A DNA stretch of 64,000 nt, taken from contig CAZMLK010000001.1 in NCBI GenBank assembly GCA_964567265.1, positions 262,574 through 326,573 of the forward strand, read 5' to 3'. Under the pieces are notes generated by a model, which had not been told where the DNA came from, did not search any database, and saw nothing but the letters and a program-made list of their open reading frames with translations. Positions 600 through 64,000 of the stretch are shown piece after piece. Numbering within the stretch: position 1 is the first letter of the stretch; each line of letters begins with the position of its first letter. The stretch is from an uncultured Candidatus Saccharibacteria bacterium (GTDB lineage Bacteria; Patescibacteriota; Minisyncoccia; Phycocordibacterales; UBA12088). The position numbers and the translations under genes were made by a program.

Positions 600-626
600 T
601 TGAAAGCAATAAAATAATAGTACAAT

Positions 627-896: not shown

Positions 897-1026
897 ACCC
901 ACCTCCCAGACCAGTCTCTTCAAGGATGCCGTCACCTCCACCCTCGGCGCAGCGAGCTACGTCATCAGCACGACCACCGGCACGTATACCGACACCTACA
1001 CCGGCGGAGCCTTCCGCGACTGGTGC

Positions 1027-2028: not shown

Positions 2029-2033
2029 CACTC

Positions 2034-2378
2034 ATGAATACCTTTGAACATGTCCTTAAGGGGAAAAAAGTAGAAGTTATCAACGATAAGCCAGAAAAAT
2101 ACGAAGACGGAACTGTCGGCAATGATTGGGGTCTGGGTTTCGAGGGAGATTGGGGCTTGGCAATCTATGCCAACAGGGTAATAAAAAATGCCGAGTCGCT
2201 GAAAGATTTCGTTGGTGAAAAACTTACTTCAATCCAAGAAACAGAGAATGCAGTTGTTTTCGACTTCACTCATGAAAAAAAAATAATAATTTCTTTGGAA
2301 GAAAAAGATTGGAACGGCCCGGAGATAATGATGCTACAACGAGATAATCAGATATATGTATGGGGTGTCGGTGAATAG
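2034..2378 (+). CDS. putative cognate immunity protein for the Rhs C-terminal toxin
   Basis: 114-aa acidic ORF starting 6 nt after the toxin stop, which is the typical toxin-immunity arrangement. It is AT-rich like the toxin tip. Confidence 0.55.
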   Translation: MNTFEHVLKGKKVEVINDKPEKYEDGTVGNDWGLGFEGDWGLAIYANRVIKNAESLKDFVGEKLTSIQETENAVVFDFTHEKKIIISLEEKDWNGPEIMMLQRDNQIYVWGVGE

Positions 2379-2447
2379 CCGGTAGCTGTAGTCAGAGATA
2401 CCTCCAATACTCTTTAAAAGGCAGGGCTCAATATTCTCCATATAATT

Positions 2448-2639
2448 ATGAAAAAGATACCAATAACGCTTCTGCCGATCGTTCTAATTTTGATCGTTCT
2501 CCTCCTGTTCACTTTCTACGTGCCGCAGAGCGGGGATTTGATTTCTAGTAAAGGTGACTATTACTTGGGGCAAGCGCTCGGCCTCCTAACAGTGCTTTCA
2601 CTCCTCTTGGATTTTATGAGGTTCCAGAATCGCAAGTAG
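2448..2639 (+). CDS. small membrane protein with two predicted TM helices
   Basis: 63-aa ORF with two hydrophobic segments, located in the AT-rich cassette region. Confidence 0.35.
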   Translation: MKKIPITLLPIVLILIVLLLFTFYVPQSGDLISSKGDYYLGQALGLLTVLSLLLDFMRFQNRK

Positions 2640-2683
2640 AAACCAGCTGTAGTCTGTCGCCGGGGACACATCCATTTGAAACT

Positions 2684-2908
2684 ATGAAAGAAGAAATACT
2701 AATGCCGCTTGATGAAGAGGGAATCACCGTCTATCGACCCGTTTTGGCATTAAGGATTAATGATCACATTTATAAAATTCTTGAAGATACCTTAAATAAC
2801 CAAAATGATGAAGTTTGGGCCTTTAAGCCAGGTGAAGTCGTAGAGGTTGTTGAAAAAGAATTCGAGAATAAAAAATCATTGGTTGCCGTAAATTTGTACA
2901 AAGAATAA
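2684..2908 (+). CDS. hypothetical small protein
   Basis: 74-aa ORF in the cassette region with the same orientation as its neighbours. Confidence 0.35.
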   Translation: MKEEILMPLDEEGITVYRPVLALRINDHIYKILEDTLNNQNDEVWAFKPGEVVEVVEKEFENKKSLVAVNLYKE

Positions 2909-2953
2909 TGTATTTAACGCAAAGTCAGTCGTAATTAAACTGAATTCAATTCT

Positions 2954-3214
2954 ATGAACGACGGAAATAAACTTACACCGGATGAAGCATATAAGGCTAT
3001 GTTTTTCTTTCTAGATCGATGGTGGAAAGAAGGAGGACAGAAAGAAGATAACATTGCAAATATACTCAGTAGTATGTCTCTTTTAGCAGATGGTTCTTCT
3101 GCGGACGGCGCTATGATGCAAGACTGGAAAAATAGTGTCAAAAAGGTTCTCGAGTATCGAGGAAGGGTGGAAACGGGGGAAGAACCATGGATGTTGAATT
3201 TGACTAATAATTAG
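2954..3214 (+). CDS. hypothetical small protein, possible orphan immunity gene
   Basis: 86-aa ORF. GGGGACACRTCCA-like junction motifs flank this gene and the previous one. Confidence 0.4.
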   Translation: MNDGNKLTPDEAYKAMFFFLDRWWKEGGQKEDNIANILSSMSLLADGSSADGAMMQDWKNSVKKVLEYRGRVETGEEPWMLNLTNN

Positions 3215-3382
3215 GTCTTAGAATGGTATTGTCTTGTGGCGGCGTAGGGGAGTAGCGGGGGGACACGTCCAATATTCCTCCAAAATCTGTGGAGTACTAT
3301 TCTCCATCTGTCCGGTAGGGGTGGGACCAACACCACTACTTGCTTTTTTCTGGGCTTGCTGCATAATGTCGCTCATTAAATT

Positions 3383-4258
3383 ATGACCGATTTAAAGCAG
3401 CAAATCCACGAGAATACCCTCCGTGCCTACATATGGATGGCCGCATTAACCACCATCATAGGCGTGCTTGGCACGCTGATTTCCTATTCATTTGATTGGG
3501 GACTCACTGGTACTGGCTCGTTTCTCCTTGTAGCCGGTTTCATCAATTTTCTTGCCTATTTCTTTTCAGATAAGCTCGTCCTTCGTGCAACGGGAGCAAA
3601 GCCTGTTTCTCTGGAACAGGCTCCTGAGCTCTACGAGATTGTCGAGCGGTTGTCACAAAAGGCCGGCATTCCTGTACCTAAAATATATCTCATTGACGAG
3701 CGTGCATTGAATGCGTTTGCCACAGGCAGAGACCAGAAGCATAGCGCGGTGGCAGTCTCAAGAGGTCTTCTTGAGCACATGACTGCAGATGAAGTTGAAG
3801 GAGTCGTCGCCCACGAGCTTTCACACATTCGGAATTACGATATGCGATTTGCAGCCATTGTTTCCGTACTTGTTGGCTTTGCGAGCATCGTAGCTGATCT
3901 GTACTGGTCATCTCGCATGGTCAGTGCAGCCCAGGAAAAAGATCGATCCGGCATACTGGCGATCATCGGACTTGTTCTTGCCGTGGCAACACCACTTACG
4001 GCCATGTTTATCCAGTTGGCAATATCGCGAAAGCGCGAATTCATTGCCGATGCTGCAGGAGCGACATTGACTGAGAATCCTAAAGCGTTGGCCTCGGCAT
4101 TAAAGAAGATTGCGCTTGATGTACGTCTCCCGTCGGGGATCAGTCCTGCTACTGCACATATTTATTTTTCCACCCCGAATAAAGACTCATTCATCGAGCG
4201 GCTGTTCGCAACCCATCCTCCAATCGAAGAACGAATCAATATCCTTGAGTCCAAATAA
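3383..4258 (+). CDS. htpX: HtpX-like M48 zinc metalloprotease
   Basis: Two N-terminal TM helices, a HELSH zinc motif (HEXXH) and a C-terminal ATHPPIEERI region typical of HtpX. A CATAAT-like -10 lies upstream near 3364. Confidence 0.9.
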   Translation: MTDLKQQIHENTLRAYIWMAALTTIIGVLGTLISYSFDWGLTGTGSFLLVAGFINFLAYFFSDKLVLRATGAKPVSLEQAPELYEIVERLSQKAGIPVPKIYLIDERALNAFATGRDQKHSAVAVSRGLLEHMTADEVEGVVAHELSHIRNYDMRFAAIVSVLVGFASIVADLYWSSRMVSAAQEKDRSGILAIIGLVLAVATPLTAMFIQLAISRKREFIADAAGATLTENPKALASALKKIALDVRLPSGISPATAHIYFSTPNKDSFIERLFATHPPIEERINILESK

Positions 4259-4284
4259 TCTAGATTAAAAAATTCAATACGAGC

Positions 4285-4905
4285 ATGTCAGATTCAACTA
4301 CAGCAGAAGCGCCAATAAAGATCGGAAATCACACGCAGGATATCGTGAGGTGTGCTAATTGCAACATGGAAGGAGTTGTCGGCGATTTCTTCACCTATCA
4401 GACGAAGGACGGCTCAGATACCTACCTCTGTTCAGACTGCCGCGTCAAAGCAAATGAGACGCTTGAGGCAGAGAAGAATCAAATCAATATGGTGTATGCG
4501 GCCGGGCTCGGTATCGTTGCAGCGATCGCGGGTGGAATCGCGTGGTACTATGTCACCCTGCTCACGAACATGGAATTCGGATATGCAGCGCTCGGACTCG
4601 GATATCTGGTCGGATATGCAGTATTTATCGGTGCTGGGAAGCGACGCGGACAAAAGTTGCAGATCCTGAGTGTGGTATTGACTTTGCTTAGTATTTTCTG
4701 GGCAGAATACTTCATTTTCAGTCACGGACTCTTCGAATACATGAGCGCGAATCCCTCTCAATTTGATTGGTGGGATGGTGCTAAAATTTGGCTAGATCCG
4801 TGGTCTTCTATCTTCCTCGAAACATTTATCTCTCCAATCAGCGCACTTATTTACGCAATCGGCCTCTACGTAGCGTACACTGTGTGCAAGCCTCAAAAAC
4901 TCTAA
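4285..4905 (+). CDS. zinc-ribbon membrane protein (N-terminal CxxC...CxxC followed by about four TM helices)
   Basis: CANCN...CSDC motif followed by hydrophobic helices. Followed by a strong terminator. Confidence 0.6.
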   Translation: MSDSTTAEAPIKIGNHTQDIVRCANCNMEGVVGDFFTYQTKDGSDTYLCSDCRVKANETLEAEKNQINMVYAAGLGIVAAIAGGIAWYYVTLLTNMEFGYAALGLGYLVGYAVFIGAGKRRGQKLQILSVVLTLLSIFWAEYFIFSHGLFEYMSANPSQFDWWDGAKIWLDPWSSIFLETFISPISALIYAIGLYVAYTVCKPQKL

Positions 4906-11254: not shown

Positions 11255-11710
11255 ATGAATGAGACCCATGGCGGCAGCTCAGTAGAGATTCGCCGCCTGC
11301 ATCTGGGGGACGCGCATGCATGCTTTGAAAATCTGAGATATCTATATGAGCAGCTTTCCCAGGAACGCGGGTCACTATCGCTCTACCAGCTCCAGCGCGC
11401 CCTCAGCACGGCTTCAACGGTCGTGATGGTCGCTCGAAAGAGCAACATCCTTGTCGGTACCGCCACCATCTGCATTGCGCCCACCATCGGTGGCACGCTG
11501 GCATTCATCGAAGCAGTTGTCGTCGATTCGGATCATCACGGCCACGGGATCGGCAAAAGCCTCATGCTCCGTTTACTGGATCGCGCGAGATCCGAAGGCT
11601 GTACATCCGTCCAGCTGACCTGCCGACCGTCGAGGGAGATTGCGCACAAACTCTACGCGTCACTCGGATTCAAGTGCAGAGAGACTGATCTTTTACGGTT
11701 GATGTTGTAA
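11255..11710 (+). CDS. GNAT family N-acetyltransferase
   Basis: VVVDSDHHGHGIGKSLM acetyl-CoA binding motif. SD AAAGGAAC upstream. Confidence 0.8.
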   Translation: MNETHGGSSVEIRRLHLGDAHACFENLRYLYEQLSQERGSLSLYQLQRALSTASTVVMVARKSNILVGTATICIAPTIGGTLAFIEAVVVDSDHHGHGIGKSLMLRLLDRARSEGCTSVQLTCRPSREIAHKLYASLGFKCRETDLLRLML

Positions 11711-11716
11711 AGAAGT

Positions 11717-11752
11717 GCGCCCCGAGCTGTAAGCTCGGGGCGCTTTCCATTC
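11717..11752. terminator. bidirectional terminator between convergent genes
   Basis: GCGCCCCGAGC tgtaa GCTCGGGGCGC followed by a T-rich tract. Confidence 0.55.
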
Positions 11753-11763
11753 CAATTTCGCAC

Positions 11764-13416
11764 CTAGGAATGCGCCATGTTTGCCTTGATGTCCTCGACC
11801 GTCGCGCCGTATTTCTTGCCCGGATTGAGGATGCCGGCGGGATCGAAGATCTCCTTGGTCTGCCGGAAGAGGTCGTACATCTCCTTGCCGAACATCTGCT
11901 CGAGATAGGGCGTCCGTATGAGGCCATCGTTGTGTTCCGCGGTGATCGAGCCCTTGTACTCGTGCACGAGGTCGTACACCTTGGTATTGAGTTCCATGAT
12001 ATCGATCTTGGTCTGCGGATTCTTGAAGTCCATGAGCGGAATGATGTGGAAATTGCCGTCACCTGCGTGGCCGGCGATGGTGTAGAGGAGCTTGTGCTCG
12101 TCGAGGAGCGCCTGGAGCTTCGGAAGGAATGCGGGCAGATGCTCCGGCTTCACGACGACGTCCTCGATGAACGGCGCGGTCCGCATATTGCGCACATGCT
12201 TCCGAAGCAGATTGAAGCTCTCATGGCGGATGCGCCAATACTTCTCGGCCTCGCTTTGCGAGCGGGCGATGTGAATCTCGTAGCCGAAATGTATGACCTT
12301 TTCCTTGACCTCGACGAGCTGTTTCTTGATCGCAGCATCATCGTCGCCAGCAAATTCAACAAGAAGCATGAGCTTTGGGATCTTGCCGCCGCGGATAATT
12401 TTCCATGCGTCCGGGATGAACTGGAAGCCGAGCCGGACCATGCCGAATGTGCCGATCTGCTTCCAGAAATCGAAAAAGAATTTGACCGCGAGCTTCAAGC
12501 TGTAGTCATCGAAGGTCTCCAAAGTTTCAGGCCCAAAGGGAAGGATCTCGTTCACGATCTCGCTGAGGCGCGTGATGTCCGGCATGAAGACGACGAGGAT
12601 GTTCGACTTCGGATGCGCTGGGACAAGCTTGAAGGTCGCCTCGGTCACGAGCCCAAGCGTGCCTTGGGATCCGACGATCAGCTTGCAGAGGTCGAAAGTC
12701 CCAGTCTTCGGATCGTACACATCCCAGAGGTAGTAGCCGGCGGAATTCTTGGAGACATCGGGCTTCGCTGCCATGATGCGATCCTTGTTCGCCTCAATGA
12801 GCTGCCAGAGCTTCTTGTAGAGCTCGCTCTCTGAGGTGCCCTCAGCAATCTTCGCGTCGAGCTCTGCCTTCATGAGCGGCCGGACGACGTATTCATTGCC
12901 ATCCGTGAAGACGACCTTAAGGCCGGTCACGAAGTCGCGCACCTGTCCGTAGCGGAGGCTCTTCTCGCCGCCCGAATTATTAGAGACGATGCCGCCGATC
13001 GCGCAGAGCTCGCGCGATGCCGGGAAGGTGGGCATCAATGTATTATTCTTCATCGTCGCCTTCTCGAAGTCGCGGTAGTGGAGGCCAGGCTCGGCGGTGC
13101 CGGATTCAGGCGTGACGCTGCCCAAATGATTCATGTACTTGGTGAAGTCCGCGATGATGGACGCGCCGACCGCGCCGCCCGACATGTCGGTGCCGGCAGA
13201 TCGCGCGGTTATGGAAAGCGTCGGGTCTTCTGCTTTGTGTGCAGCCACCCATTTCACCAATGTCTGGACGTCCTTGGAGTGCTTTGGAAAAACGACGACC
13301 TTCGGACGGATCTCGAAAATGCTGGCGTCGCGCGAGTAGGTTGTTAAGGTCTTTTCAGAAGAATCGATATCGCCCTCGAAATCAGGCTTCAGGGAATCGA
13401 ATGAAATGGTGCTCAT
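11764..13416 (-). CDS. FAD-binding oxidoreductase (GlcD / D-lactate dehydrogenase family)
   Basis: FAD_binding_4-like N-terminus with the FAD-linked oxidase C-terminal domain. The start is chosen at MSTISFDS, with ATG at 13416 on the minus strand. Confidence 0.85.
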   Translation of the reverse strand: MSTISFDSLKPDFEGDIDSSEKTLTTYSRDASIFEIRPKVVVFPKHSKDVQTLVKWVAAHKAEDPTLSITARSAGTDMSGGAVGASIIADFTKYMNHLGSVTPESGTAEPGLHYRDFEKATMKNNTLMPTFPASRELCAIGGIVSNNSGGEKSLRYGQVRDFVTGLKVVFTDGNEYVVRPLMKAELDAKIAEGTSESELYKKLWQLIEANKDRIMAAKPDVSKNSAGYYLWDVYDPKTGTFDLCKLIVGSQGTLGLVTEATFKLVPAHPKSNILVVFMPDITRLSEIVNEILPFGPETLETFDDYSLKLAVKFFFDFWKQIGTFGMVRLGFQFIPDAWKIIRGGKIPKLMLLVEFAGDDDAAIKKQLVEVKEKVIHFGYEIHIARSQSEAEKYWRIRHESFNLLRKHVRNMRTAPFIEDVVVKPEHLPAFLPKLQALLDEHKLLYTIAGHAGDGNFHIIPLMDFKNPQTKIDIMELNTKVYDLVHEYKGSITAEHNDGLIRTPYLEQMFGKEMYDLFRQTKEIFDPAGILNPGKKYGATVEDIKANMAHS

Positions 13417-13481: not shown

Positions 13482-15125
13482 ATGACCCAGGATGAAGCAT
13501 TCAGTGTACTCAAGACCGGAGCGAATGCCTTCGTCACGGGCGAGCCTGGATCGGGAAAGACGCATACGATTAACCGCTACATCCGGTATCTCCGCTCGCA
13601 CTCGATCGAGCCCTCAGTCACCGCCTCGACCGGAATCGCCGCGACGCATGTGGGCGGCATGACCATCCATTCCTGGAGTGGTATCAATATCCGGAAGACG
13701 CTCTCGCGCTACGAGCTTGATGCATTGTCCGAAAAGGAATACCTCGTGAAGCGCCTCACAGCGGCGAAGGTGCTCGTGATCGACGAGATCTCGATGTTGG
13801 ATGCGGATACGCTCGATACGGTCGAGCAGGTGTGCCGGACGCTCCGCCGAAAGGCAGAGCCGTTCGGCGGCCTCCAGATCATCTTCGTCGGAGACTTCTT
13901 CCAGCTTCCGCCGGTCGCCCGCATGGGCGAGCCGAAGCCGCGCTTTGCCTTTGAGTCGCGTGCATGGGAAGCCGCGCGGCCGTTCGTCTGCTATCTGACC
14001 GAGCAGCACCGACAAGAAGACGATGTCTTCCTGTCGGTGCTGGCTGAGCTCCGCCGTGGCGAGCCGAGCGACTACTCGCGCGAGCATCTCGCGACGCGCC
14101 GGGTGATGCCCGGAAGTCCCGTTCTTGAAATCCAAACGAAACTCTATACCCACAACGCGGATGTCGATCGGATCAATACCGAGAAGCTCGGACGGCTTGA
14201 GGGGGGCATGCGCACCTTCACGATGGAGCGGCATGGCTCGGGGACCATCGTCGAGAAGCTTGCTCAGACCTGCTTGTCGCCTGAGATCCTGAATTTGAAA
14301 GAGGGGGCGATCGTGATGTGCACCAAGAACAATCCCGAAATGGGATTCGTCAACGGCACGCTCGGCACCGTGATGCGTTTTGAAAAGGAAAGTGGCCGGC
14401 CGGTCATAAAGACGCATGACAAGCGCGAGCTCACGCTCGCGCCAATGGAGTGGACCATCGAGGATAACGGCAAGGTGATCGCGAAGGTGGTCCAGATCCC
14501 GCTTCGCCTCGCCTGGGCAATGACCGTCCACAAGAGCCAGGGCATGTCCCTCGACGCCGCTGTCATCGATCTCTCGAATGCATTTGAATATGGCCAGGGA
14601 TACGTCGCACTCTCGCGCATCCGCACGCTCGACGGCCTCCATCTCCTCGGCATCAATGAGCGCGCGCTCGAAGTGCATCCGCAGATTCTAGAAAAGGATG
14701 CTGACATGCGGAGCTCATCCAAAGATGTTGGCAACGCCTTCGGCAGTATGAGCGCCGTTGAAAAGAAAACGATGGAAGAGAATTTCATCCGTGCGCAGGG
14801 CGGCACGCTTGAGGAAGTGAAAGTCGAGAAGCAGACCGGCGTAACCCGAATCCGAAGCGCCAAGAAGAAGACGCCTGAGGAGCAGGCGAAAAGCGATTCC
14901 TACCAGGCGAAGCTCGCGAAGCTTCGTGAGAAATTCCCGAATGCATTCATGCCCTGGAAGAAGGAAGATGACGAGAAGCTCATCGCGAACTTCGACGGGG
15001 AAGAGTCGGTCCCGAAACTCATCAAGCTCATGGGCCGCCAGCGGGGCTCCATCCGCGCCCGCCTCGTGAAGCATGGCCTCATAGAAGACGACACCGTAGG
15101 AGCAGTCGAAGCGGAGATTTTCTAG
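13482..15125 (+). CDS. PIF1/RecD-family ATP-dependent DNA helicase with a roughly 110-aa C-terminal extension
   Basis: Walker A GEPGSGKTH. VLVIDEISML and PFGGLQIIFVGDFFQLPPV motifs. HKSQGMSLD lies in the C-terminal helicase domain. SD GGAGGA upstream. Confidence 0.8.
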   Translation: MTQDEAFSVLKTGANAFVTGEPGSGKTHTINRYIRYLRSHSIEPSVTASTGIAATHVGGMTIHSWSGINIRKTLSRYELDALSEKEYLVKRLTAAKVLVIDEISMLDADTLDTVEQVCRTLRRKAEPFGGLQIIFVGDFFQLPPVARMGEPKPRFAFESRAWEAARPFVCYLTEQHRQEDDVFLSVLAELRRGEPSDYSREHLATRRVMPGSPVLEIQTKLYTHNADVDRINTEKLGRLEGGMRTFTMERHGSGTIVEKLAQTCLSPEILNLKEGAIVMCTKNNPEMGFVNGTLGTVMRFEKESGRPVIKTHDKRELTLAPMEWTIEDNGKVIAKVVQIPLRLAWAMTVHKSQGMSLDAAVIDLSNAFEYGQGYVALSRIRTLDGLHLLGINERALEVHPQILEKDADMRSSSKDVGNAFGSMSAVEKKTMEENFIRAQGGTLEEVKVEKQTGVTRIRSAKKKTPEEQAKSDSYQAKLAKLREKFPNAFMPWKKEDDEKLIANFDGEESVPKLIKLMGRQRGSIRARLVKHGLIEDDTVGAVEAEIF

Positions 15126-56751: not shown

Positions 56752-57993
56752 ATGGAGAAAGCACATCTGGTAAAACGGAAGCTCCCAGACACGCCCGGCG
56801 TGTATTTTTTCCTGGGTCCGCGTAAGAAGATCCTGTACATCGGCAAGGCGACATCGCTCCGCTCGCGCGTGCGGAGCTATTTCGACGCGGATATCGCGGC
56901 CAAGCGGAGCCCGCTCATCGCCCAGATGGTTGCGGAGGCAAAGACCATCGACTTCCGGAAGACCGACTCTGTCCTCGAAGCGCTGATTCTTGAAGCAAAT
57001 CTGATCACGCATTGGAAACCCGCCTACAACACAGACGGCAAGGACGACAAGAGCTTTAATTATGTAGTGATCACGAACGAGGAGATCCCGCGCGTTCTTA
57101 TGGTCCGCGCGCATGAGCTCTATCAGACGTATGAGGAGAGCGAGCTCAAGCGAGTGTTCGGGCCGTTCCCGCATGCAGCGCAGCTCAAGGAAGCCCTCCA
57201 TCTCGTGCGGAAGATCTTCCCGTTCTTCGACACCAAGAAGCCAGTCCTCGCGAACATGACGCCGCACGAGGCAGGGAAGATCCGCTTCAACCAGCAGATC
57301 GGCGTGTACCCGAGCATGCTGTCTTCTGATGAATATGCGCGTTCAATCCGCCACATCATTCTTCTGTTCGAAGGGAAGAAGCCGCTCCTCGTTCGAGAGC
57401 TGAAGAAGGAAATGAAACTCGCTGCCTCGGAGCAGCGCTTCGAAGATGCAGAACGCGCGAAACGCCAGATGTTCGCGCTCACGCATCTTCGTGATATCGC
57501 CCTCATCAAGGAAGACATGGCGGCCGGCCCTGGGGATTTCAGGATCGAGGCATATGACATCGCGCATCTGGGCGGCAAGGCGATGACGGGCGTCATGGTC
57601 GTGGTCGAGGACGGAGTCGCAAAGAAATCAGACTACCGCAAATTTAAGGTTCGCACAGTGGCAGCCTCGAATGACACGAAGGCGCTCAAGGAAGTGATTG
57701 AGCGGCGCCTCGGACACTCAGAATGGCCGCTTCCGAACCTCATAGTCGTTGATGGGGGCCAGGCGCAGATCAACGCTGCAGAATCAGTGCTCGCCACCTT
57801 CGGCTACATGATCCCGGTCACGAGCGTGGTCAAGGATGACAAGCACCGCGCCCGCGACATCATGGGCGACCAGCTCCATCGAAAGCTCCGGGAAAAGGAG
57901 ATCCTTCTCGCCAACGCAGAGGCGCATCGCTTCGCGATCGCCTATCACCGCCTCACAGGACGCCGAGCGCTCATCAGGCCCTCGAACGGATAA
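56752..57993 (+). CDS. uvrC: excinuclease ABC subunit C, short form lacking the C-terminal HhH domain
   Basis: GIY-YIG motifs (PGVYFFLGPRKKILYIGKATSLRSRVRSY), a UVR-like helix (RFEDAERAKRQ) and the UvrC RNase H-like endonuclease domain (AYDIAHLGG...LIVVDGGQAQ). Confidence 0.85.
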   Translation: MEKAHLVKRKLPDTPGVYFFLGPRKKILYIGKATSLRSRVRSYFDADIAAKRSPLIAQMVAEAKTIDFRKTDSVLEALILEANLITHWKPAYNTDGKDDKSFNYVVITNEEIPRVLMVRAHELYQTYEESELKRVFGPFPHAAQLKEALHLVRKIFPFFDTKKPVLANMTPHEAGKIRFNQQIGVYPSMLSSDEYARSIRHIILLFEGKKPLLVRELKKEMKLAASEQRFEDAERAKRQMFALTHLRDIALIKEDMAAGPGDFRIEAYDIAHLGGKAMTGVMVVVEDGVAKKSDYRKFKVRTVAASNDTKALKEVIERRLGHSEWPLPNLIVVDGGQAQINAAESVLATFGYMIPVTSVVKDDKHRARDIMGDQLHRKLREKEILLANAEAHRFAIAYHRLTGRRALIRPSNG

Positions 57994-58030: not shown

Positions 58031-58999
58031 ATGCAGAAGAAGCGCATCGGCGTCCTACGTGGAGGGCCATCCAGCGAATACGAGGTCTCCCTGAAGACGG
58101 GTGCGAGCATTTTGAAGCATCTTCCGAGCGAACGATACGAGGGGAAGGATATCCTCATCGACCGATCCGGAGTGTGGCACTTGCGCGGACTCCCGATTGA
58201 GCCCCGGCGTGCGCTCAGCCAGGTGGATGTCGTCATCAACGGACTGCATGGTACGTACGGCGAGGATGGGACGGTGCAGAAGATCCTCCAGATGCACAAT
58301 GTGCCCTATACGGGTTCCGATGCGCTCTCTTCCGGTATCGCGATGAATAAGGTGATGACCAAGACCCGTGCCGCGGCAGCGGGGCTCAAGCTCGCAAACC
58401 AGATCGTGCTCTCGATGCCTCGAGATGAAGAGGTCTCGCTTTCGGATGTCTACAAGATGCTCTCGCCGCCGATCGTCATCAAGCCCGCCGATGGCGGCTC
58501 ATCGGTCGGCACCATGGTTGCGCGGACATTCGATCAATTTTTGGTGGGCGTTCCCGCGGCATTCGCGCATTCGAACACCGTACTCCTAGAGGAATTTGTG
58601 TTCGGAAAGGAGGCCACCTGTGGGGTCATTGATGATTTCCGCGGTGAGGAAATTTACGCACTCCCGCCAATCGAGATTCGCCCCCCGAAGGACAGACCGT
58701 TTTTTGACTATGACGCTAAGTACACCGGCGTGACGCAAGAAATCTGCCCGGGCAATTTCACCGCATCCGAAAAGCGTGCGATTGAAGAGGCTGCGAAAGC
58801 GATCCATCGCGAAATCGGCCTCCGACACTATTCGCGCTCTGACTTCATTGTCTCGAAGAAGGGGATTTACTTCCTTGAGGTGAATACGCTGCCGGGCATG
58901 ACTTCGGAATCCCTCCTCCCGAAAGCTTTGGCAGCAGTGGGGTGCAGCTACCCGGACTTCCTTGATCACCTGGTCGGTCTTGCGGAACGTACGCATTGA
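58031..58999 (+). CDS. ddl: D-alanine--D-alanine ligase
   Basis: IGVLRGGPSSEYEVSL, HGTYGEDGTVQ and EVNTLPGMT motifs. Confidence 0.9.
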   Translation: MQKKRIGVLRGGPSSEYEVSLKTGASILKHLPSERYEGKDILIDRSGVWHLRGLPIEPRRALSQVDVVINGLHGTYGEDGTVQKILQMHNVPYTGSDALSSGIAMNKVMTKTRAAAAGLKLANQIVLSMPRDEEVSLSDVYKMLSPPIVIKPADGGSSVGTMVARTFDQFLVGVPAAFAHSNTVLLEEFVFGKEATCGVIDDFRGEEIYALPPIEIRPPKDRPFFDYDAKYTGVTQEICPGNFTASEKRAIEEAAKAIHREIGLRHYSRSDFIVSKKGIYFLEVNTLPGMTSESLLPKALAAVGCSYPDFLDHLVGLAERTH

Positions 59000-59062: not shown

Positions 59063-59596
59063 ATGACGGTTCAGGATCTCGAAGCAGTTGCCTTTTCGGA
59101 TAGAACACGACGCATCCTTTTGTCTCACCTGCGAAATGCATTCCCGCGCATTAATCGAGCGGATATCGAGGACGTGGTCCAAGAGACGCTCATTACAGCA
59201 CACGCAAATCTTCACCGGTACGATCCGGAGCGTAGTCCCTTTCTCGGATGGCTCCATGTGATTGCAGACTCGCGAGCTATCGATCACCTTCGGAAATGCA
59301 GGACCATTACGCTTCACAATGATTGCATTGCGGAACACCGTACTCCTGAGCGAGCCGTTTGCGGGCGTGAGATGCTCCAAAAGATATTCCAAGCATTCGA
59401 TCCTGCACCTGGCCGGCCTTGCTTTAAGAATGGTGAACGTTACCGAATATTCCTTGTCCTTCGCGCGATGGGAGTCAAGGAATCGGAAATGCAAAGACGA
59501 TTTTCAGTTCCGCCGGGGACGCTGAAGTCTATACGTCGTCTCGCAATGCATGCAGCACTGTATCGATTGGAGCAGCTACAGGGCGAAGCCTTGTAA
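59063..59596 (+). CDS. ECF-subfamily RNA polymerase sigma factor
   Basis: Region 2 (DIEDVVQETLITAHANLHRYDP...FLGWLHVIADSRAIDHLRK) and region 4 HTH. Confidence 0.8.
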   Translation: MTVQDLEAVAFSDRTRRILLSHLRNAFPRINRADIEDVVQETLITAHANLHRYDPERSPFLGWLHVIADSRAIDHLRKCRTITLHNDCIAEHRTPERAVCGREMLQKIFQAFDPAPGRPCFKNGERYRIFLVLRAMGVKESEMQRRFSVPPGTLKSIRRLAMHAALYRLEQLQGEAL

Positions 59597-59664: not shown

Positions 59665-60009
59665 ATGTCAGAACTTGCCAAAAAACACTGCGAAGCGTGC
59701 GAAAAAAAAGGGACGCCGCTGGCGCTCCCTGCTGCCGAGGAATTCCACAAAGAGGTGTCTCTGTGGCACCTCGCCGAGGACGCATCTAAGATCGAGCGGA
59801 CCTTCCATTTCGGCGATTTCGAGGAAGCGATGGAATTTGTGAACGCGGTCGCGGAGCTGGCGGAAACAGAGGGCCATCATCCTGATTTCTTCATTTCCTG
59901 GAACAAGGTCCGGCTCACCCTTTCCACTCACTCCATCAAGGGGCTGTCCGAAAACGACTTCATTCTGGCCGCGAAAATCGACGAAATCCTTCCCCCGCCA
60001 GAACTTTAA
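59665..60009 (+). CDS. 4a-hydroxytetrahydrobiopterin dehydratase (pterin-4-alpha-carbinolamine dehydratase)
   Basis: EGHHPDF signature with the length and pattern of PCD/DCoH. Confidence 0.85.
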   Translation: MSELAKKHCEACEKKGTPLALPAAEEFHKEVSLWHLAEDASKIERTFHFGDFEEAMEFVNAVAELAETEGHHPDFFISWNKVRLTLSTHSIKGLSENDFILAAKIDEILPPPEL

Positions 60010-60051
60010 AATTCTGGGAAGGTATGGTATTCTCTCGAAGTCCGCAGATAC

Positions 60052-60124
60052 GGGCCCGTAGCTTAGTTGGTAGAGCACCTCATTTGCAATGAGGGGGTCA
60101 GGAGTTCGAATCTCCTCGGGTCCA
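60052..60124 (+). tRNA. tRNA-Ala (anticodon UGC)
   Basis: Cloverleaf folded by hand. Acceptor stem GGGCCCG/CGGGUCC with a G3:U70 wobble pair, D-arm GCUU..GAGC, anticodon loop UUUGCAA, T-arm AGGAG-UUCGAAU-CUCCU and discriminator A73. CCA is not encoded. Confidence 0.9.
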
Positions 60125-60126
60125 CA

Positions 60127-60167
60127 AAATACAAAAGCCCTGCCACTTTGGCAGGGCTTTTGTATTT
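60127..60167. terminator. 19-bp perfect-stem hairpin terminator, bidirectional
   Basis: AAATACAAAAGCCCTGCCA ctt TGGCAGGGCTTTTGTATTT. Inner stem of a larger 89-nt palindrome. Confidence 0.7.
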
Positions 60168-60378
60168 CAGTGAATGACCCGAGGAGATTCGAAAGCCGGA
60201 AAACAATGCTCCCGGGGAGCAGTGTTTGAGGCGGGGTCGCGAACACTGAGCAACTCGTGAGCGAAAATGCGCTCGTCAGGATGTTCCAATCACCAATAAG
60301 AACATTTCCTGGAGAAAGCCAAGATGGTAGCATATCTACTATACGTTTTTTATAAGTCGATTTTTCAAATTTTGAAGC

Positions 60379-61788
60379 ATGTCAACATCACACACCCTGA
60401 AGGCACTCGCATTCGGGATTACACTGCTCGCGTTCGCTCCTATCTCTTACGCGGCATTTGATACCGATCTCCAGTTTGGCGCAAAGGGCGCTGAGACAGT
60501 TGAGCTCCAAAAAGTACTGATTAGTCAAGGATATCTGAACGGGACTGCGACCGGTAATTTCCTTTCGTTGACAAAACAGGCAGTTATCAAATTCCAGAAA
60601 GCGTCGAATGTTCCGGGAACGGGCTATGTAGGCCCGCTGACTCGTGCGAAGCTTAGACTTCTAGTCGGAACCCCTGTTACATCAACTCCAATCATTGCGA
60701 CAACAACGATCGCTGTTCCTGCAGTGCCAGCTCCAAGTGTTTCAACTCCCCAAGTGCCGGCAATTCCATTTTACGTTGCGAAAACTATCTGGGAGTTTTC
60801 CGATAACACGAGCCCGTTCCAACTTCCGGCCACGAATACTCCCCCCGCTTCAAATTTCGTAGACCCAGCACTTTTTACAGAGAAGCAAATAGATCCACGT
60901 GCGATCGTGCTTGTGCGGTGCCTGTATGTGCCTGACTACTCCAAAACGAGTTACAAGGGAAGTACCGAACCCCAAGTGTTTTCAGGTACGGGCGTCGTCG
61001 TTTCGCCGGAAGGGCATATTCTCTCGGCTGGCCATATCTTGAATGGTGCAGTGCTGCTTGAAGAGTCGGGCTCGAATGTCACTTGGACAAGAAAGGGGTG
61101 CGACATTGCGCCAACATCTTCCTCACTAACCCCTATAGACCCATCTGCTGGTGTTTCAAATAAAACACACTTCGATCCTGTGGAAATCGTCTTCGAACCT
61201 TCCGCAACGGAGTTCAATGTCATCAAGGTGACTGATCCAGACAGCCCCGGAAAGACAATAACGCTTGGAGGAGGTGCCGATCTTGATTTCGCCCTCCTGC
61301 AGGTGAAGGGTCTCAATCTTCCGTATGCGCCCCTTGCGTCAAAATTGCTTTCTCTGAAGCCTGGCGAAAAAACAATAGGGCTTGGATACCCTGGAGTTGC
61401 CGGTAACCCATATGGGTTGGAGCGTATCGACGGACAGTTTGATGGATATATCTGGTCAGAATATTCCACATGTGTAGGGAAGATGATCGTTGAGCGCTGT
61501 GGAGTCAGTTACCAGACAAAACGCTATAAGAATGAGTACAAGAAGCTCTACGGCGTCCAGACTGAACTCGGCAAACATACGAGTTACTTCCGCGGCGGTT
61601 TCTCAGGCGGACCATTGTTCTATAAAGGAAATGTTATCGGCATCATTACATTCGGACGCGAAAATTCCTACACCAATCTGTATGATCTCTCAACGGTCGG
61701 ACTCTGGAACTGGGTGGTCGCGCTTTCATCCAACGAGATCGTGACGACATTGAGGATGCACGGAATCAATCTCGCAACGGTTCCATAG
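60379..61788 (+). CDS. secreted trypsin-like (S1) serine peptidase with an N-terminal peptidoglycan-binding domain
   Basis: Signal peptide. PG_binding_1-like repeat (ETVELQKVLISQGYL...KFQKASNV). His region LSAGHIL, GGFSGGPLF serine motif. Low GC. Confidence 0.7.
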   Translation: MSTSHTLKALAFGITLLAFAPISYAAFDTDLQFGAKGAETVELQKVLISQGYLNGTATGNFLSLTKQAVIKFQKASNVPGTGYVGPLTRAKLRLLVGTPVTSTPIIATTTIAVPAVPAPSVSTPQVPAIPFYVAKTIWEFSDNTSPFQLPATNTPPASNFVDPALFTEKQIDPRAIVLVRCLYVPDYSKTSYKGSTEPQVFSGTGVVVSPEGHILSAGHILNGAVLLEESGSNVTWTRKGCDIAPTSSSLTPIDPSAGVSNKTHFDPVEIVFEPSATEFNVIKVTDPDSPGKTITLGGGADLDFALLQVKGLNLPYAPLASKLLSLKPGEKTIGLGYPGVAGNPYGLERIDGQFDGYIWSEYSTCVGKMIVERCGVSYQTKRYKNEYKKLYGVQTELGKHTSYFRGGFSGGPLFYKGNVIGIITFGRENSYTNLYDLSTVGLWNWVVALSSNEIVTTLRMHGINLATVP

Positions 61789-61914
61789 AGCCTACGATCA
61801 ATGCTCGAGCAGAGTAATGTTGTCCGCGTTCTTCCTTGCCACGCGCATGATTTCGTGTTTTATTTCCGCTAGACCAATGGCGCATTCCGCGCCATATGAG
61901 TGGAGTTGCTTGTC

Positions 61915-63630
61915 ATGATGTCCGAAAACGCCCGCTATCTCTACGAAGTGCTGTTTGCTGGATTTGATTTCCGTCCACCACATCCGAATAGGTCGCTTCC
62001 GGAAGTGGTTCGGGATGCAACCGAAGCGGTTGAGAAGCATCTGAAGAATTCTCCACTGCTCCGTGCCTATCTAGAAACCGTTCCAAAAGGGCCGGGTACC
62101 GATTGTCCCGATTCACCGCTTGATGAGCTTGTCTACTATGTAGCCACTCAGAAAGGCTGGGTCGACAAGAAGGATCCGTATCTGAATCTCAGATTCCTCG
62201 CACGCTTCGTGCTTCCGGTCTTCGAGATGGAACGCCATGTGGTCGAGCGTGCTATTCACGGTCTTCGAGCGATCACTGAACAGCAGGAACTACTCTTTCT
62301 AGACTGCATTCTGCACGCGCGAGCCGTCGATCGGCTTTGGCAGCGCTGGTTCGAGAAGGTGGCTGCACCGTTCCAATCGCTCGACAAGGAGGGGCAAGAA
62401 CGGCAGAAAAAGAAGCTGGGGAATATCCTTCCACCATATGACTATACGGCTTTTGAGATTGATCCTTTTGGAGATATCCAGAATCGCCGTCCATGGGCAA
62501 AGGCATTCCCGAAGGAGATTGCGGCAATTGACGCGTCACTCCGCGAGCTTGAAGAAACGGAAGATCAGTATCTTGCCGAATACTTCCGAGCCCTTCGCCT
62601 GGCATACACCTGCGACCGCATCGAAAATCTGGAAGAACGCTGGGCAGAGGTAGACCGCGCGTGGGTACTGATTCCATCTGACAGCGAGATCATCCCTGTC
62701 CATGGCATGGAAAGCGCGTACGGTCATGCGTTCTGCGTCAGTCCGGAGTTCAGGCTCGAGTTCCGAACTCCGGATTCCATACGTGAGATCGAGCTCCAAC
62801 GAAAAGCTGCCGTAGAGCATGCAGACAAGATTCTCGGGCTCAGCAACGCGCTCATACTTGAGGCATCAAAAAAACTGCGGCGAATCGATGTCAGCGTCTT
62901 CACCCCCGGTATTCGTGCCGGCAGTTGCATCGATTTCCGGTATGCGGGCCAGGCGGTTCCAAATCGCCAGGCAGTGCTTCTGATCGGCGGCAAGATATTC
63001 GTCGATCAGAGCGATCCGGCGCGTGTTGCAGAGCGATATCAGACCTTGATTCTGCGTCACTGCGCTCCTCATACTGCCGCTCAAATCGCACCGCTCCTCA
63101 CGCGCGAAATGCAGATCATGGGTACGATCACTCATGAGTTCGCACATCCGATCGGAAGGACAAGCGCAAGCGACGAGATGCTTGGGCATACCGTCGTCTT
63201 CCAGCTCGAGGAAGGGAAGGCGACACTCGGCGGCATTTGCGCTGAGGAGTATGCCGATCCGTCTCCGGAACATCGCCTCCAGCTTGTCGCCAATGCTGTC
63301 GGTCGGATGCTCAGGTTCATGCAGCATTCTGAAATTACGAATCCGACCATTGCTCCCTATGTCCGGGAGAATCTCGTGACGGCGACGACGCTCTATGATG
63401 CGGGAATCTTGTCACTCTCCAAGCAGGGTTTGGAGATTGATATCGGGATGGCCAGCAGTCCGTATTGGTTCCAGAATCTCCGCGTTTTCTACGGAGATTT
63501 GGTCGCTGCATATGAGTCAAAGGATGCAGCGGCAATTGCATCCATGACCACTCTGTATGCCAATCCGGATGATCCGCAAATAGTCGAACTTATCGAGTGG
63601 GTAAACCGCGAGCTTCCGGCCGCAGCATAA
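61915..63630 (+). CDS. large hypothetical protein with an HEXXH motif (ITHEFAHPIG), unknown family
   Basis: 571 aa from ATG 61915; the ORF-track start at 61900 is a GTG. No recognisable family; possibly a zinc peptidase-like protein. Confidence 0.6.
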   Translation: MMSENARYLYEVLFAGFDFRPPHPNRSLPEVVRDATEAVEKHLKNSPLLRAYLETVPKGPGTDCPDSPLDELVYYVATQKGWVDKKDPYLNLRFLARFVLPVFEMERHVVERAIHGLRAITEQQELLFLDCILHARAVDRLWQRWFEKVAAPFQSLDKEGQERQKKKLGNILPPYDYTAFEIDPFGDIQNRRPWAKAFPKEIAAIDASLRELEETEDQYLAEYFRALRLAYTCDRIENLEERWAEVDRAWVLIPSDSEIIPVHGMESAYGHAFCVSPEFRLEFRTPDSIREIELQRKAAVEHADKILGLSNALILEASKKLRRIDVSVFTPGIRAGSCIDFRYAGQAVPNRQAVLLIGGKIFVDQSDPARVAERYQTLILRHCAPHTAAQIAPLLTREMQIMGTITHEFAHPIGRTSASDEMLGHTVVFQLEEGKATLGGICAEEYADPSPEHRLQLVANAVGRMLRFMQHSEITNPTIAPYVRENLVTATTLYDAGILSLSKQGLEIDIGMASSPYWFQNLRVFYGDLVAAYESKDAAAIASMTTLYANPDDPQIVELIEWVNRELPAAA

Positions 63631-63653
63631 AAAATCATCACTAGTAATTTCGA

Positions 63654-63680
63654 AGCGGCCCGAGGGCCGCTTTCTTTTTT
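63654..63680 (+). terminator. rho-independent terminator
   Basis: AGCGGCCC gag GGGCCGCT followed by TTCTTTTTT. Confidence 0.7.
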
Positions 63681-63779
63681 ACCCTTACACAGAAGGCTAT
63701 TTTGGAGCCTCGATTTTCAGATTTTGCGTGTGTGGAATGCGCTCGCGCCAGGCGGCATATTTGGTACAGTTAGAACATA

Positions 63780-64000
63780 TGCACATTCAGAAAAACAAAG
63801 GAGCGTCCCGGCGACTCTCGCTCCCCGTCGCATTTATTTTCAGCGCGCTGATCGTTTCATTCGCTTCCAATCAGAGCGCATCCGCAGAGACAAGCACTTC
63901 CACACCACCGGACCCGTACACCTCGGCGGGCGTCGAGGTGCGCGTACGAGAGTACTTCAAGGATATCCCTGTCATGATTCCGATCGCGAAATGCGAATCC
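63780..64000 (+). CDS. secreted protein, 5' partial at the window edge (possible transglycosylase-like IAKCES motif)
   Basis: ATG at 63780 with a signal peptide. The frame is open to the end of the window. Confidence 0.4.

Follow-up and report, generated by a model that had tools for sequence, protein, structure and literature searches.

CiaB ('Campylobacter invasion antigen B') serves as a virulence marker in Campylobacter and Arcobacter. It has been described as secreted via the flagellar apparatus, and its molecular activity, to our knowledge, has never been defined. The flagellar secretome is the subject of PMC5223770. No link of CiaB to M49, DPP III or HEXXH was found in the searchable literature, although one may nonetheless be published. 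Chymotrypsin-fold proteases of the HtrA/Deg type (S1C) carry one or two PDZ domains behind the protease domain, and PG_binding_1 domains are usually fused to muralytic enzymes such as SleB, the gp144 endolysin of phage phiKZ and YkuD-family L,D-transpeptidases, where they accompany a glycosidase, amidase or transpeptidase.

The M49 peptidases are characterized by two motifs, HEXXGH (HEXXH in a short bacterial group) and EEXR(K)AE(D), the second Glu of the latter being a zinc ligand (PMC5805324). In human DPP III, the residues E316, Y318, N391 and N394 anchor the N-terminus of the substrate (PMC5805324; PMC4824452), and H568 stabilises the oxyanion (PMC4824452). PolE shares the DPP III fold, but lacks the catalytic His and displays the motif HE/DxxH-X21-23-E (PMC12614342).

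Here, we describe two adjacent genes, termed gene A and gene B, in a window of 64,000 nucleotides, the whole stretch of DNA that was analysed. From domains and folds, from conserved residues, and from synteny and composition, we estimate with a probability of roughly three in four that the two genes are independent of each other and resident in a Patescibacteria (CPR, Paceibacteria-type) chromosome, encoding an exported wall-tethered serine protease and a cytoplasmic DUF7897/CiaB zinc peptidase, respectively.

Organization of the locus

Both open reading frames, the tRNA-Ala, the palindrome and the motifs quoted in an earlier sequence-only reading of this DNA are present as described there (Table 1). 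The gene order in the window is UvrC, Ddl, sigma, PCD, tRNA-Ala(TGC) and protease, and the gene for a 332-aa PG_binding_1 protein downstream of gene B, which runs off the window, is succeeded by a sortase gene and a GT4 gene. The stem behind the tRNA gene, with a terminator-like position suggestive of such a role, is identical in the closest relative of the source genome (L001/L002), while a segment of ~106 nt (about 60168-60275), which holds the inverted tRNA-Ala copy, is missing there. Equally, the closest relative shows nothing that corresponds to the spacer between the two genes, and a homologue of the hairpin that succeeds gene B is located directly 3' of the protease gene in L001. For gene B, a GTG at 61900 provides an alternative start leading to a product of 576 aa, while the ATG chosen in the sequence-only reading leads to the 571-aa form whose numbering is used here unless stated otherwise. 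Promoter and terminator scans report consensus matches only, and no promoter was found by such matching in the region of the two genes.

Table 1. Positions of features in and around genes A and B; coordinates refer to the window.
Feature	Position	Strand	Basis or remark
Pterin-4a-carbinolamine dehydratase (PCD) gene	59665-60009		~2 kb upstream of gene B
tRNA-Ala (anticodon TGC)	60052..60125	+	ARAGORN; Rfam tRNA, 71.8 bits
Perfect 19-bp stem with 3-nt loop (palindrome)	60127..60167	.	Repeat search, 100% complementary
Inverted partial copy of tRNA-Ala 3' end	60176..60200	-	25 nt, 88% complementary to 60098-60122
Gene A, peptidoglycan-binding S1 (PA-clan) serine protease	60379..61788	+	469 aa, predicted exported
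Predicted Sec signal peptide, aa 1-25	60379..60453	+	MSTSHTLKALAFGITLLAFAPISYA, cleaved before A; read from sequence
PG_binding_1 domain, aa 37-92	60487..60654	+	Pfam, E 1.2e-12
Chymotrypsin-fold catalytic domain, aa ~171-469	60889..61785	+	Pfam Trypsin_2
Triad of gene A: H219; D303; S409	61033-61035; 61285-61287; 61603-61605	+	
Spacer between genes A and B, 126 nt	61789..61914	+	Weak 5-bp terminator-like hairpin only, 61841-61858
Gene B, DUF7897/CiaB-family protein with M49 (DPP III)-like fold	61915..63630	+	571 aa
E266...Y269	62710..62721	+	Aligned to substrate N-terminus anchors (CaDPP III E240/Y242; human E316/Y318)
N350 of invariant Q346-x-x-P349-N350	62962..62964	+	Aligned to CaDPP III N324, human N394
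HEFAH (H407, E408, H411)	63133..63147	+	Predicted zinc ligands and general base
EEGKA (E432, E433, K435, A436)	63208..63222	+	Second M49-type motif; E433 predicted third zinc ligand
Intrinsic-terminator-like hairpin and T-run after gene B	63652..63683	+	Consensus scan
Start of next gene, 332-aa exported PG_binding_1 protein	63737..64000, runs off window	+	Pfam PG_binding_1; translation

A predicted exported serine protease with a peptidoglycan-binding domain

The gene A product was proposed in the sequence-only reading to be an exported protein that combines a peptidoglycan-binding and a chymotrypsin-fold domain, which is supported, as to the two domains by the Pfam profiles PG_binding_1 and Trypsin_2 and as to export by a predicted signal peptide. 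As read from the sequence, this signal peptide has a basic n-region and a hydrophobic core ahead of the cleavage motif S-Y-A, with a hydrophobic N-terminus being shared by all nine homologs. The PG_binding_1 domain (PF01471), which scores 48.2 bits against a gathering threshold of 23 and structurally matches SleB-N, is joined by a Pro/Thr/Ser-rich linker to the protease domain, in which Trypsin_2 matches aa 203-422 (E 9.3e-12). Assignment to family S1 of clan PA is supported by the profile match, the His-Asp-Ser order of the triad and the double beta-barrel fold. The triad residues, with S409 being part of GGFSGGPLF (aa 406-414), and two cysteines are invariant in nine homologs, and the structure model is of moderate quality (pLDDT 76).

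While the nearest structures are Deg/HtrA, Rv3671c and V8, the gene A protein has no Pfam PDZ match and reaches 14-21 bits with the NCBIfam models of the HtrA family, whose cut-offs are 416-470, so that it is not an HtrA/DegP protein. In contrast to HtrA/Deg and Rv3671c/MarP-type proteases, its catalytic domain is, through insertions, larger by ~100 aa, has conserved cysteines of its own and is preceded by the N-terminal PG_binding_1 domain. On the other hand, the gene A product differs from SleB, gp144 and the L,D-transpeptidases in that this domain is combined with a serine protease. The family is small, with eight word-indexed matches and 36 representatives at E<=1e-3 among 1.84 billion; with its named members in Pacebacteria and Sungbacteria, the protease clade has so far come to light in Patescibacteria.

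The gene A product would be exported by Sec and subsequently tethered non-covalently to peptidoglycan through PG_binding_1, while the disulfide-containing chymotrypsin-fold domain would cleave its substrates by the His219-Asp303-Ser409 triad. The role is most likely proteolysis at the cell surface, such as protein processing, turnover or the supply of peptide nutrients. It is doubtful, although the usual company of PG_binding_1 domains points that way, that the enzyme is directed against peptidoglycan itself, cutting stem peptides or cross-bridges of its own wall or the wall of a host as an autolysin or episymbiont weapon. CPR bacteria are frequently episymbionts, and the neighbourhood is related to the envelope, with Ddl upstream and the exported PG_binding_1 protein, the sortase and the GT4 glycosyltransferase downstream. 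However, peptidoglycan hydrolases are rare among chymotrypsin-fold enzymes, the nearest structures belong to proteases of protein quality control and processing, and the peptidoglycan-binding domain is accessory, since four of the nine homologs are devoid of it.

A DPP III-like fold in the DUF7897/CiaB family

In the sequence-only reading, gene B was considered to encode a protein that resembles zinc peptidases in one HEXXH motif, which holds true with HEFAH at aa 407-411, but also to belong to an unknown family without other recognisable domains. The latter can be revised, as the product matches Pfam DUF7897 (PF25448; E 7.5e-21, 74.6 bits against a gathering cut-off of 27; aa 191-545 of the 576-aa form), the NCBIfam CiaB model below its cut-off and the M49 DPP III fold. 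The DUF7897 profile is equally matched by all 37 aligned relatives of gene B. The structure model is confident (pLDDT 93.5) and displays two lobes, the upper one holding the predicted zinc site and the lower one containing a beta-barrel, as is typical for the M49 fold. All top 17 Foldseek matches of the model are DPPs III (6eom, E 7e-13), and the family profile detects the structures 6eom_A (E 1e-10) and 5zum_A (E 1.2e-8) with every motif in register, while the Pfam profile Peptidase_M49 matches none of the 37 family members at E<=10.

The HEFAH motif, embedded in ITHEFAHPIG (aa 405-414), is invariant across the 37 family members, bona fide CiaB included, and aligns with HEISH/HELMH of 6eom/5zum; H407-E-F-A-H411 thus corresponds to the pentapeptide form of the first M49 motif present in the short bacterial subgroup. 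E432, E433, K435 and A436, also invariant in the 37 sequences, align with EECKAD/EEAKAD, whereby the first five positions fit the second M49 motif and the sixth is Thr and not Glu/Asp. Among the substrate N-terminus anchors, three of four are kept, namely E266, invariant in the 37 sequences, Y269, invariant within the CPR clade, and N350, while human N391 is replaced by A347. The oxyanion-stabilising His is not conserved, as the His of 'NEAHG' in CaDPP III, presumably the equivalent of human H568, aligns to T478 of gene B. Catalysis would consequently need another stabiliser, possibly the nearby Y482, which is invariant in the family.

The closest described enzymes are the short bacterial M49 members CaDPP III of Caldithrix abyssi (6EOM) and CoDPP III of Corallococcus (5ZUM), with which gene B shares the pentapeptide HEXXH, EExKA and the Glu/Tyr/Asn anchors of the N-terminus. 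However, identity is only 13-16%, the loop between the zinc motifs is shorter by eight residues, and a signal peptide, predicted for CaDPP III (PMC5805324), is not found in the gene B product. The two-lobed gene B protein may be considered a cytoplasmic zinc peptidase and a divergent sister of the M49 DPPs III, as its sequence and modelled fold suggest. Zinc, the presumed metal, would be bound by H407, H411 and E433 with E408 activating the water, while E266, Y269 and N350 of the lower lobe would clamp the free N-terminus of an oligopeptide. With such a clamp, the enzyme is likely to act on short peptides, which it would trim at their N-terminal end.

Gene B is not an ortholog of CiaB, since it scores 78.1 bits with the CiaB equivalog model NF033805, below the cut-off of 250, while true Aliarcobacter CiaB sequences (P0056, P0058) reach 843 bits. 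The two proteins belong to the same Pfam family with about 20% identity, and HExxH, EExKA, E266, Q346-P349-N350 and Y482 are invariant among CPR sequences and Aliarcobacter CiaB alike; in contrast to the flagellar-type export described for CiaB, no such route is evident for gene B.

Lack of the DPP III oxyanion His is also a feature of PolE, with which gene B further shares a spacing of 21 residues between H411 and E433. It can be envisaged that gene B encodes a mononuclear Fe(II)/tetrahydropterin-dependent oxidase like PolE (DUF6421 type), with a free amino acid or a peptide as its substrate, whereby the PCD gene nearby might recycle the pterin. We regard this as quite unlikely, as the gene B family profile matches both short DPPs III but not PolE at E<=10, the M49-specific EExKA and the N-terminus-anchoring E/Y/N are kept, and none of the 37 family members matches the DUF6421 model. 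PolE, with about 370 aa, is missing much of the lower lobe, unlike gene B. The proximity of PCD is probably coincidental, since a Pacebacteria relative (L003) maintains the synteny of PCD with Ddl without a DUF7897 gene within the 16 kb examined; nor were pterin genes seen at the DUF7897 loci of other genomes.

Returning to the peptidase assignment, the CiaB family, on sequence and model, looks like a DPP III-type peptidase. We lean towards the view that the entire DUF7897 family, CiaB together with a patchy clade of Patescibacteria, constitutes an unrecognised branch of M49, in which zinc binding and clamping of the N-terminus are retained, whereas the catalytic His has been replaced, possibly by Tyr482. 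In a more radical version, the family may have drifted, PolE-like, to non-hydrolytic metal-dependent chemistry. A DPP III-like zinc peptidase provides a predicted, testable function for a Pfam family of unknown function that includes CiaB, and this assignment has greater use than the hypothesis from which the study of the locus started. If DUF7897 is indeed a branch of M49, CiaB would not be a dedicated invasion effector but a peptide-trimming enzyme of cytoplasmic type, and in CPR bacteria the DUF7897 enzyme would serve to salvage peptides.

Probable residency and independence of the two genes

The sequence-only reading had envisaged a horizontally acquired, tRNA-targeted module of both genes, either attacking cell walls or acting as a pair of secreted effectors. 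Indeed, the pair directly follows the tRNA gene with the inverted partial tRNA copy close by, and the two genes share one strand with a gap of 126 nt and no strong terminator in between. In the closest relative (84% identity), however, the same tRNA-Ala and hairpin precede the protease gene, and in the Pacebacteria relative (50% identity) the order is UvrC, protease, AOX, Ddl, PCD and tRNA-Ala(TGC), so that the protease resides in the same tRNA/Ddl/PCD block. Among the called genes of the neighbourhood there is no integrase, and a direct repeat of the tRNA-Ala 3' end was not found, only the inverted partial copy. The tract thus does not display the combination of integrase, direct repeat, absence from relatives at the site and foreign composition that would indicate a tRNA-targeted genomic island.

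The low GC of the protease gene is real (0.499 versus 0.558 for the window). With respect to third codon positions, gene A (GC3 0.500) ranks sixth lowest and gene B (GC3 0.579) tenth lowest among the 48 genes of the window, whose median GC3 is 0.717 (IQR 0.658-0.758). The protease orthologs, however, equally show a low GC3, 0.497 in L001 with neighbours at 0.63-0.74 and 0.485 in L003 with neighbours at 0.59-0.70, and the value of gene A equals the intergenic GC of the window (0.482). Consequently, the composition is intrinsic to the gene and no sign of recent transfer, and correspondence with intergenic GC suggests lack of codon bias as the explanation. Low GC3 here probably marks weakly codon-biased genes, a number of which are extracytoplasmic or accessory; the same would go for the protease orthologs in relatives. 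The sequence-only reading had named, as contradicting its proposal, that both genes belong to the conserved core of relatives and resemble the backbone in codon usage there. This is not literally what was found; the protease is lineage-restricted and its GC3 is low in relatives, yet the persistence of this low GC3 argues for gene-intrinsic composition over recent import.

As to a module or effector pair, gene B is missing at the corresponding site in the closest relative with collinear flanks. No homolog of the protease catalytic domain was detected near 13 other DUF7897 loci (11 by tblastn, two by Pfam labels of called genes), nor DUF7897 in three other protease contexts (five loci), and adjacency of the two genes is unique to the source genome or lineage among the loci compared. 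As gene B also is devoid of a signal peptide, which speaks against a pair of secreted effectors, an acquired module is highly improbable. A low-GC gene beside a tRNA gene is in this case no island, a lesson for annotation which removes a false lead.

Residency of two independent genes nevertheless leaves room for cooperation. The shared strand, the short gap with its weak hairpin and one strong terminator after gene B indicate that the genes may be co-transcribed in the source genome. The predicted activities are complementary, and the two could be coupled for peptide scavenging by a co-transcription newly established in this lineage, with the protease digesting outside and gene B trimming after uptake. 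Such coupling is unlikely, though, as the adjacency is conserved nowhere else, the closest relative dispenses with gene B at the site, and the scans provided consensus matches only, with no promoter among them. Nonetheless, a predicted protease tethered to the wall and a predicted peptide trimmer inside the cell would each suit a CPR life on scavenged peptides without forming a dedicated system, and elsewhere a DUF7897 gene adjoins an ABC transporter (L006) or has an M32 carboxypeptidase gene immediately upstream (L009).

Gene B belongs to the DUF7897/CiaB family

The sequence-only reading had described the HEXXH protein encoded by gene B as a protein of unknown family and, apart from the zinc-peptidase-like motif, devoid of recognisable domains, which does not hold, as it matches Pfam DUF7897 with 74.6 bits (cut-off 27) and adopts a dipeptidyl peptidase III (DPP III) fold in the structural model. 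Against the NCBIfam equivalog 'invasion protein CiaB' the protein scores 78 bits, under the cut-off of 250. A homolog search retrieved 62 relatives, the query's own sequence not counted; the DUF7897 domain is present in all 54 of those at least 30% identical, and the source-named ones are exclusively CPR or unclassified bacterial MAGs. Further relatives at approximately 25% identity are proteins of 627-628 aa, and the two that were tested, the Aliarcobacter proteins P0056 and P0058, are both true CiaB (NF033805, 843 bits), with one cluster member named CiaB of Aliarcobacter. A genome-locus search with a narrower DUF7897 alignment gave 8 loci, a number that is no measure of taxonomic breadth.

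The high-confidence AF2 model of gene B built on a 37-sequence alignment (pLDDT 93.5, pTM 0.90) retrieved with Foldseek exclusively DPP III structures from the PDB as the top 17 matches (6eom with E 7e-13; 5zum, 5na8, human 5e3c and 3csk), followed by structures of PolE. The 37-sequence DUF7897 family profile matches the DPP III of C. abyssi (6eom_A, E 1e-10) and of Corallococcus (5zum_A, E 1.2e-8), whereas a CPR-only profile performs much weaker (E 0.038) and gene B as the sole query gave no PDB matches, so DPP III is reached by sequence only with the 37-sequence profile. Among the residues invariant in the 37 aligned sequences are H407, E408, H411, E432, E433, K435, A436, E266, Q346, P349, N350 and Y482, several of which correspond to residues with assigned roles in CaDPP III and human DPP III (PMC5805324; PMC4824452).

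Residues of gene B and their DPP III equivalents
Gene B	CaDPP III	Human DPP III	Role
HEFAH (H407, E408, H411)	HEISH (H379, E380, H383)	H450, E451, H455	zinc ligands and general base
E432, E433	E411, E412	E507, E508	second zinc motif
E266	E240	E316	substrate N-terminus anchor
Y269	Y242	Y318	substrate N-terminus anchor
N350	N324	N394	substrate N-terminus anchor
E278	E254	E329	S1 subsite

On the other hand, Asn391 of human DPP III is replaced by Ala347 in gene B and the oxyanion-stabilising histidine (human H568) by Thr478, with the invariant Tyr482 four residues further on. As, in addition, none of the aligned family members directly matches Pfam Peptidase_M49, gene B is filed under DUF7897, a divergent sister family, and not under M49, and is described as a predicted zinc peptidase that would work like DPP III. 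Lacking an N-terminal hydrophobic segment, the protein is predicted to be cytoplasmic.

The second-closest structural relatives, PolE (DUF6421), offer a different chemistry. PolE has a DPP III-derived fold without the catalytic histidine, in which the motif HE/DxxH-X21-23-E binds Fe(II) in a pterin-dependent desaturation (PMC12614342). Gene B equally lacks the catalytic histidine and has a 21-residue motif spacing, while a gene for pterin-4a-carbinolamine dehydratase (PCD) is located about 2 kb upstream; that gene B is a PolE-like Fe(II)/pterin-dependent enzyme instead of a peptidase is nevertheless improbable, as on the sequence level the DUF7897 profile matches DPP III and not PolE, the structural score is clearly higher for DPP III and the family retains the M49-type EExKA motif together with the clamp for the substrate N-terminus. 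Moreover, in the Pacebacteria relative (locus L003) PCD accompanies the D-Ala-D-Ala ligase (Ddl) gene with no DUF7897 gene on the 16 kb examined, so the proximity of PCD to gene B is probably coincidental.

The DPP III-like reading of gene B extends to CiaB. P0056 and P0058 have in common with the CPR proteins the invariant HExxH, EExKA, E266, Q-x-x-P-N and Y482, and the CiaB-including profile matches DPP III structures (E 1e-10), so that CiaB looks like an M49-type zinc peptidase. In the literature searched, no paper was found that links DUF7897/CiaB to M49, DPP III or a HEXXH metalloprotease. The one aspect of wider interest is that DUF7897, and hence CiaB, shares with DPP III the fold, the zinc site and a largely conserved substrate clamp.

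Gene A and gene B are not a pair

Both open reading frames, the tRNA-Ala and the palindrome of the sequence-only reading are all present. By gene content and the names of its homologs, the window belongs to a Patescibacteria (CPR) genome. In L005, a 9.7-kb copy of this sequence that runs past the window end, gene B is followed by the gene for a 332-aa exported PG_binding_1 protein and then, in order, by a small ORF and the genes for a sortase, a GT4 glycosyltransferase and a SulP transporter.

Features of the window (GC 55.8%)
Feature	Position	Strand	Remarks
Imm26 immunity-protein homolog	111-599		part of AT-rich stretch
ORF without Pfam match	1027-2028		part of AT-rich stretch
ORF without Pfam match	2034-2378		part of AT-rich stretch
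M48 peptidase	3383-4258		part of AT-rich stretch
UvrC	56752-57993	+	upstream of gene A
Ddl	58034-58999	+	start chosen by us; ORF opens at 57836
Sigma-70 region-2 protein	59063-59596	+	177 aa; between Ddl and PCD
PCD	59665-60009	+	upstream of tRNA-Ala
tRNA-Ala(TGC)	60052-60125
Hairpin	60127-60167		perfect, 19 bp
Gene A	60379-61788	+	469 aa
Gene B	61915-63630	+	571 aa from ATG; upstream GTG at 61900 would give 5 extra residues
Exported PG_binding_1 protein	63737-		332 aa; runs off window end (64000), continued in L005 (3641-4639)

Thirteen DUF7897 loci besides that of the window were examined (L006-L018). A homolog of the protease catalytic domain was found neither by tblastn in 11 of them nor among the called genes of the other two, and the neighbours of DUF7897 vary by locus, including an ABC transporter, DivIC, a phosphatase, tRNA synthetases and an M32 carboxypeptidase. 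Conversely, no DUF7897 gene is located near the protease homologs of the closest relative (L001/L002), the Pacebacteria relative (L003/L004) and a further protease locus (L019). Gene A and gene B, proposed in the sequence-only reading as a cell-wall-targeting or proteolytic module or a secreted effector pair, are therefore not a pair. The gap of 126 nt between the two genes contains only a weak hairpin and a strong terminator is located 3' of gene B; they could be co-transcribed in this genome, in which case the co-transcription would stem from a chance gene order peculiar to this lineage.

The L001 protease gene has as direct 3' neighbours those for the PG_binding_1 protein, the sortase and GT4, the window order minus gene B. 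The L001 spacer is homologous to the window (approximately 80% identity) from 6 nt before the gene B stop codon, across its terminator hairpin and into the next gene, while the 37 nt further upstream do not score above shuffled sequence (203 of 500 shuffles score at least as high). A remnant of the gene B 3' end in L001 was considered as proof of a deletion and rejected, as the homologous stretch is too short. In L009, a DUF7897 gene (1392-3083) is located directly 3' of a gene for an M32 (Taq-type) carboxypeptidase (8-946, E 2e-113), and tRNA-Met and the genes for three exported PG-binding proteins come next, a context that fits a role of DUF7897 in peptide catabolism. This order suggests that DUF7897 followed by a PG-binding protein may be the ancestral arrangement; together with the homology pattern of the L001 spacer, deletion rather than insertion is suggested, not proven, for the absence of gene B in the L001 lineage.

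Two of the loci, and none of the others, have FtsE/FtsX genes at a distance of 3-4 kb from DUF7897, which we treat as chance. The cell-envelope cluster 3' of gene B (PG_binding_1 protein, sortase and GT4) is conserved in L001. Pfam reported PG_binding_1 alone for the exported 332-aa protein, the N-terminal part of which contains 'AKCESGFRQF', a string similar to the CESG motif found in Rpf/transglycosylase-like muralytic domains.

Gene A encodes a PA-clan protease with a putative wall tether, from a small clade known so far from CPR

The assignment of a peptidoglycan-binding and a chymotrypsin-fold domain to gene A stands, with Pfam matches to PG_binding_1 (aa 37-92, E 1.2e-12) and Trypsin_2 (aa 203-422, E 9.3e-12) and an additional Trypsin match across the GFSGGP region. 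The N-terminus MSTSHTLKALAFGITLLAFAPISYA/AF is a predicted Sec signal peptide, as judged from the sequence, and the linker from residue 97 to about 170 is Pro/Thr/Ser-rich and of low model confidence. The predicted catalytic residues His219, Asp303 and Ser409 do not vary among nine aligned homologs; nor do Cys181 and Cys241, in agreement with a disulfide-bonded enzyme outside the cytoplasm. A PDZ domain was not found in gene A, HtrA-family models scoring far under their cut-offs. As the PG-binding domain is missing from four of these nine homologs, the putative wall tether is accessory and confined to some members.

The catalytic domain had 8 matches among 5.8 billion clusters in a word-indexed search and, among 1.84 billion representatives searched exhaustively with phmmer, 36 at E<=1e-3 (22 at E<=1e-10), which places it in a small clade, known so far from CPR. 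The named relatives of genes A and B are from Pacebacteria, Sungbacteria, Kaiserbacteria, Falkowbacteria, Magasanikbacteria and Kazan. Gene A encodes a PA-clan enzyme that carries PG_binding_1 as a putative tether and is, as gene B, a new member of an existing family.

Composition and synteny argue against recent transfer of gene A

The low GC of gene A, noted in the sequence-only reading together with a possible horizontal acquisition, is evident, as the third-codon-position GC (GC3) of 0.500 is the sixth lowest of 48 genes (median 0.717) and the codon-usage distance ranks fifth among window genes of at least 150 aa. However, the orthologs are likewise depressed compared with their own neighbours (L003 0.485 versus 0.59-0.70; L001 0.497 versus 0.63-0.74). 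As orthologs at 50% protein identity should have shed the composition of a donor, this shared low GC3 speaks against a recent transfer. The intergenic GC of the window, 0.482, matches the GC3 of gene A, and we infer that housekeeping genes of this genome carry a bias for G/C-ending codons which is absent from gene A. Several of the other low-GC3 genes of the window are extracytoplasmic or accessory, such as those for a secreted nuclease, a periplasmic binding protein, the M48 peptidase and the Imm26 protein.

The position is equally shared. The L001/L002 protease gene (84% identity) likewise comes after this tRNA-Ala 3' end and an identical hairpin. In L003/L004, where the protease is only 50% identical, it is located between UvrC and an AOX-Ddl-PCD block with tRNA-Ala(TGC) about 1.3 kb further on, which is the block of the window after local rearrangement. 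Neither an integrase in the neighbourhood nor a direct repeat of the tRNA-Ala 3' end was found in the window or L005. Shared position, shared block and shared composition thus argue against a recent transfer of gene A.

The L003 AOX gene (11410-12111), a homolog of alternative oxidase (PF01786, E 3.9e-8) between the protease and Ddl, is tightly packed on one strand with UvrC, the protease, Ddl and PCD; such an oxygen-related enzyme is unexpected for a CPR genome.

The tRNA hairpin is separated from the promoter region of the protease gene by a segment of about 106 nt (60168-60275) that is without counterpart in L001/L002. It begins with an inverted copy (60176-60200) matching the last 25 nt of the tRNA-Ala T-arm/acceptor to 88%, so that the tRNA-Ala 3' end, hairpin and inverted copy form a nested palindrome. 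By eye, approximately 60220-60260 resembles L003 at approximately 14960-15000, downstream of the tRNA-Ala there. In the window, L001 and L003, Rfam reported tRNAs only, with no match in the 106-nt segment, and a scan of 59900-64000 gave no sigma-70-like promoter sites, which is uninformative for a CPR organism. A long antisense ORF (59668..60333, minus strand) was dismissed as spurious, as it overlaps the PCD gene and the tRNA.

The sigma-70 region-2 gene, with a GC3 of 0.489 and the second-highest codon-usage distance in the window, has no gene at its place in the syntenic block of L003 and is another lineage-specific low-GC3 gene nearby. The most AT-rich stretch of the window is 111-4905, with five genes of GC3 0.36-0.53; accessory or acquired DNA is more likely there than at the locus of genes A and B.
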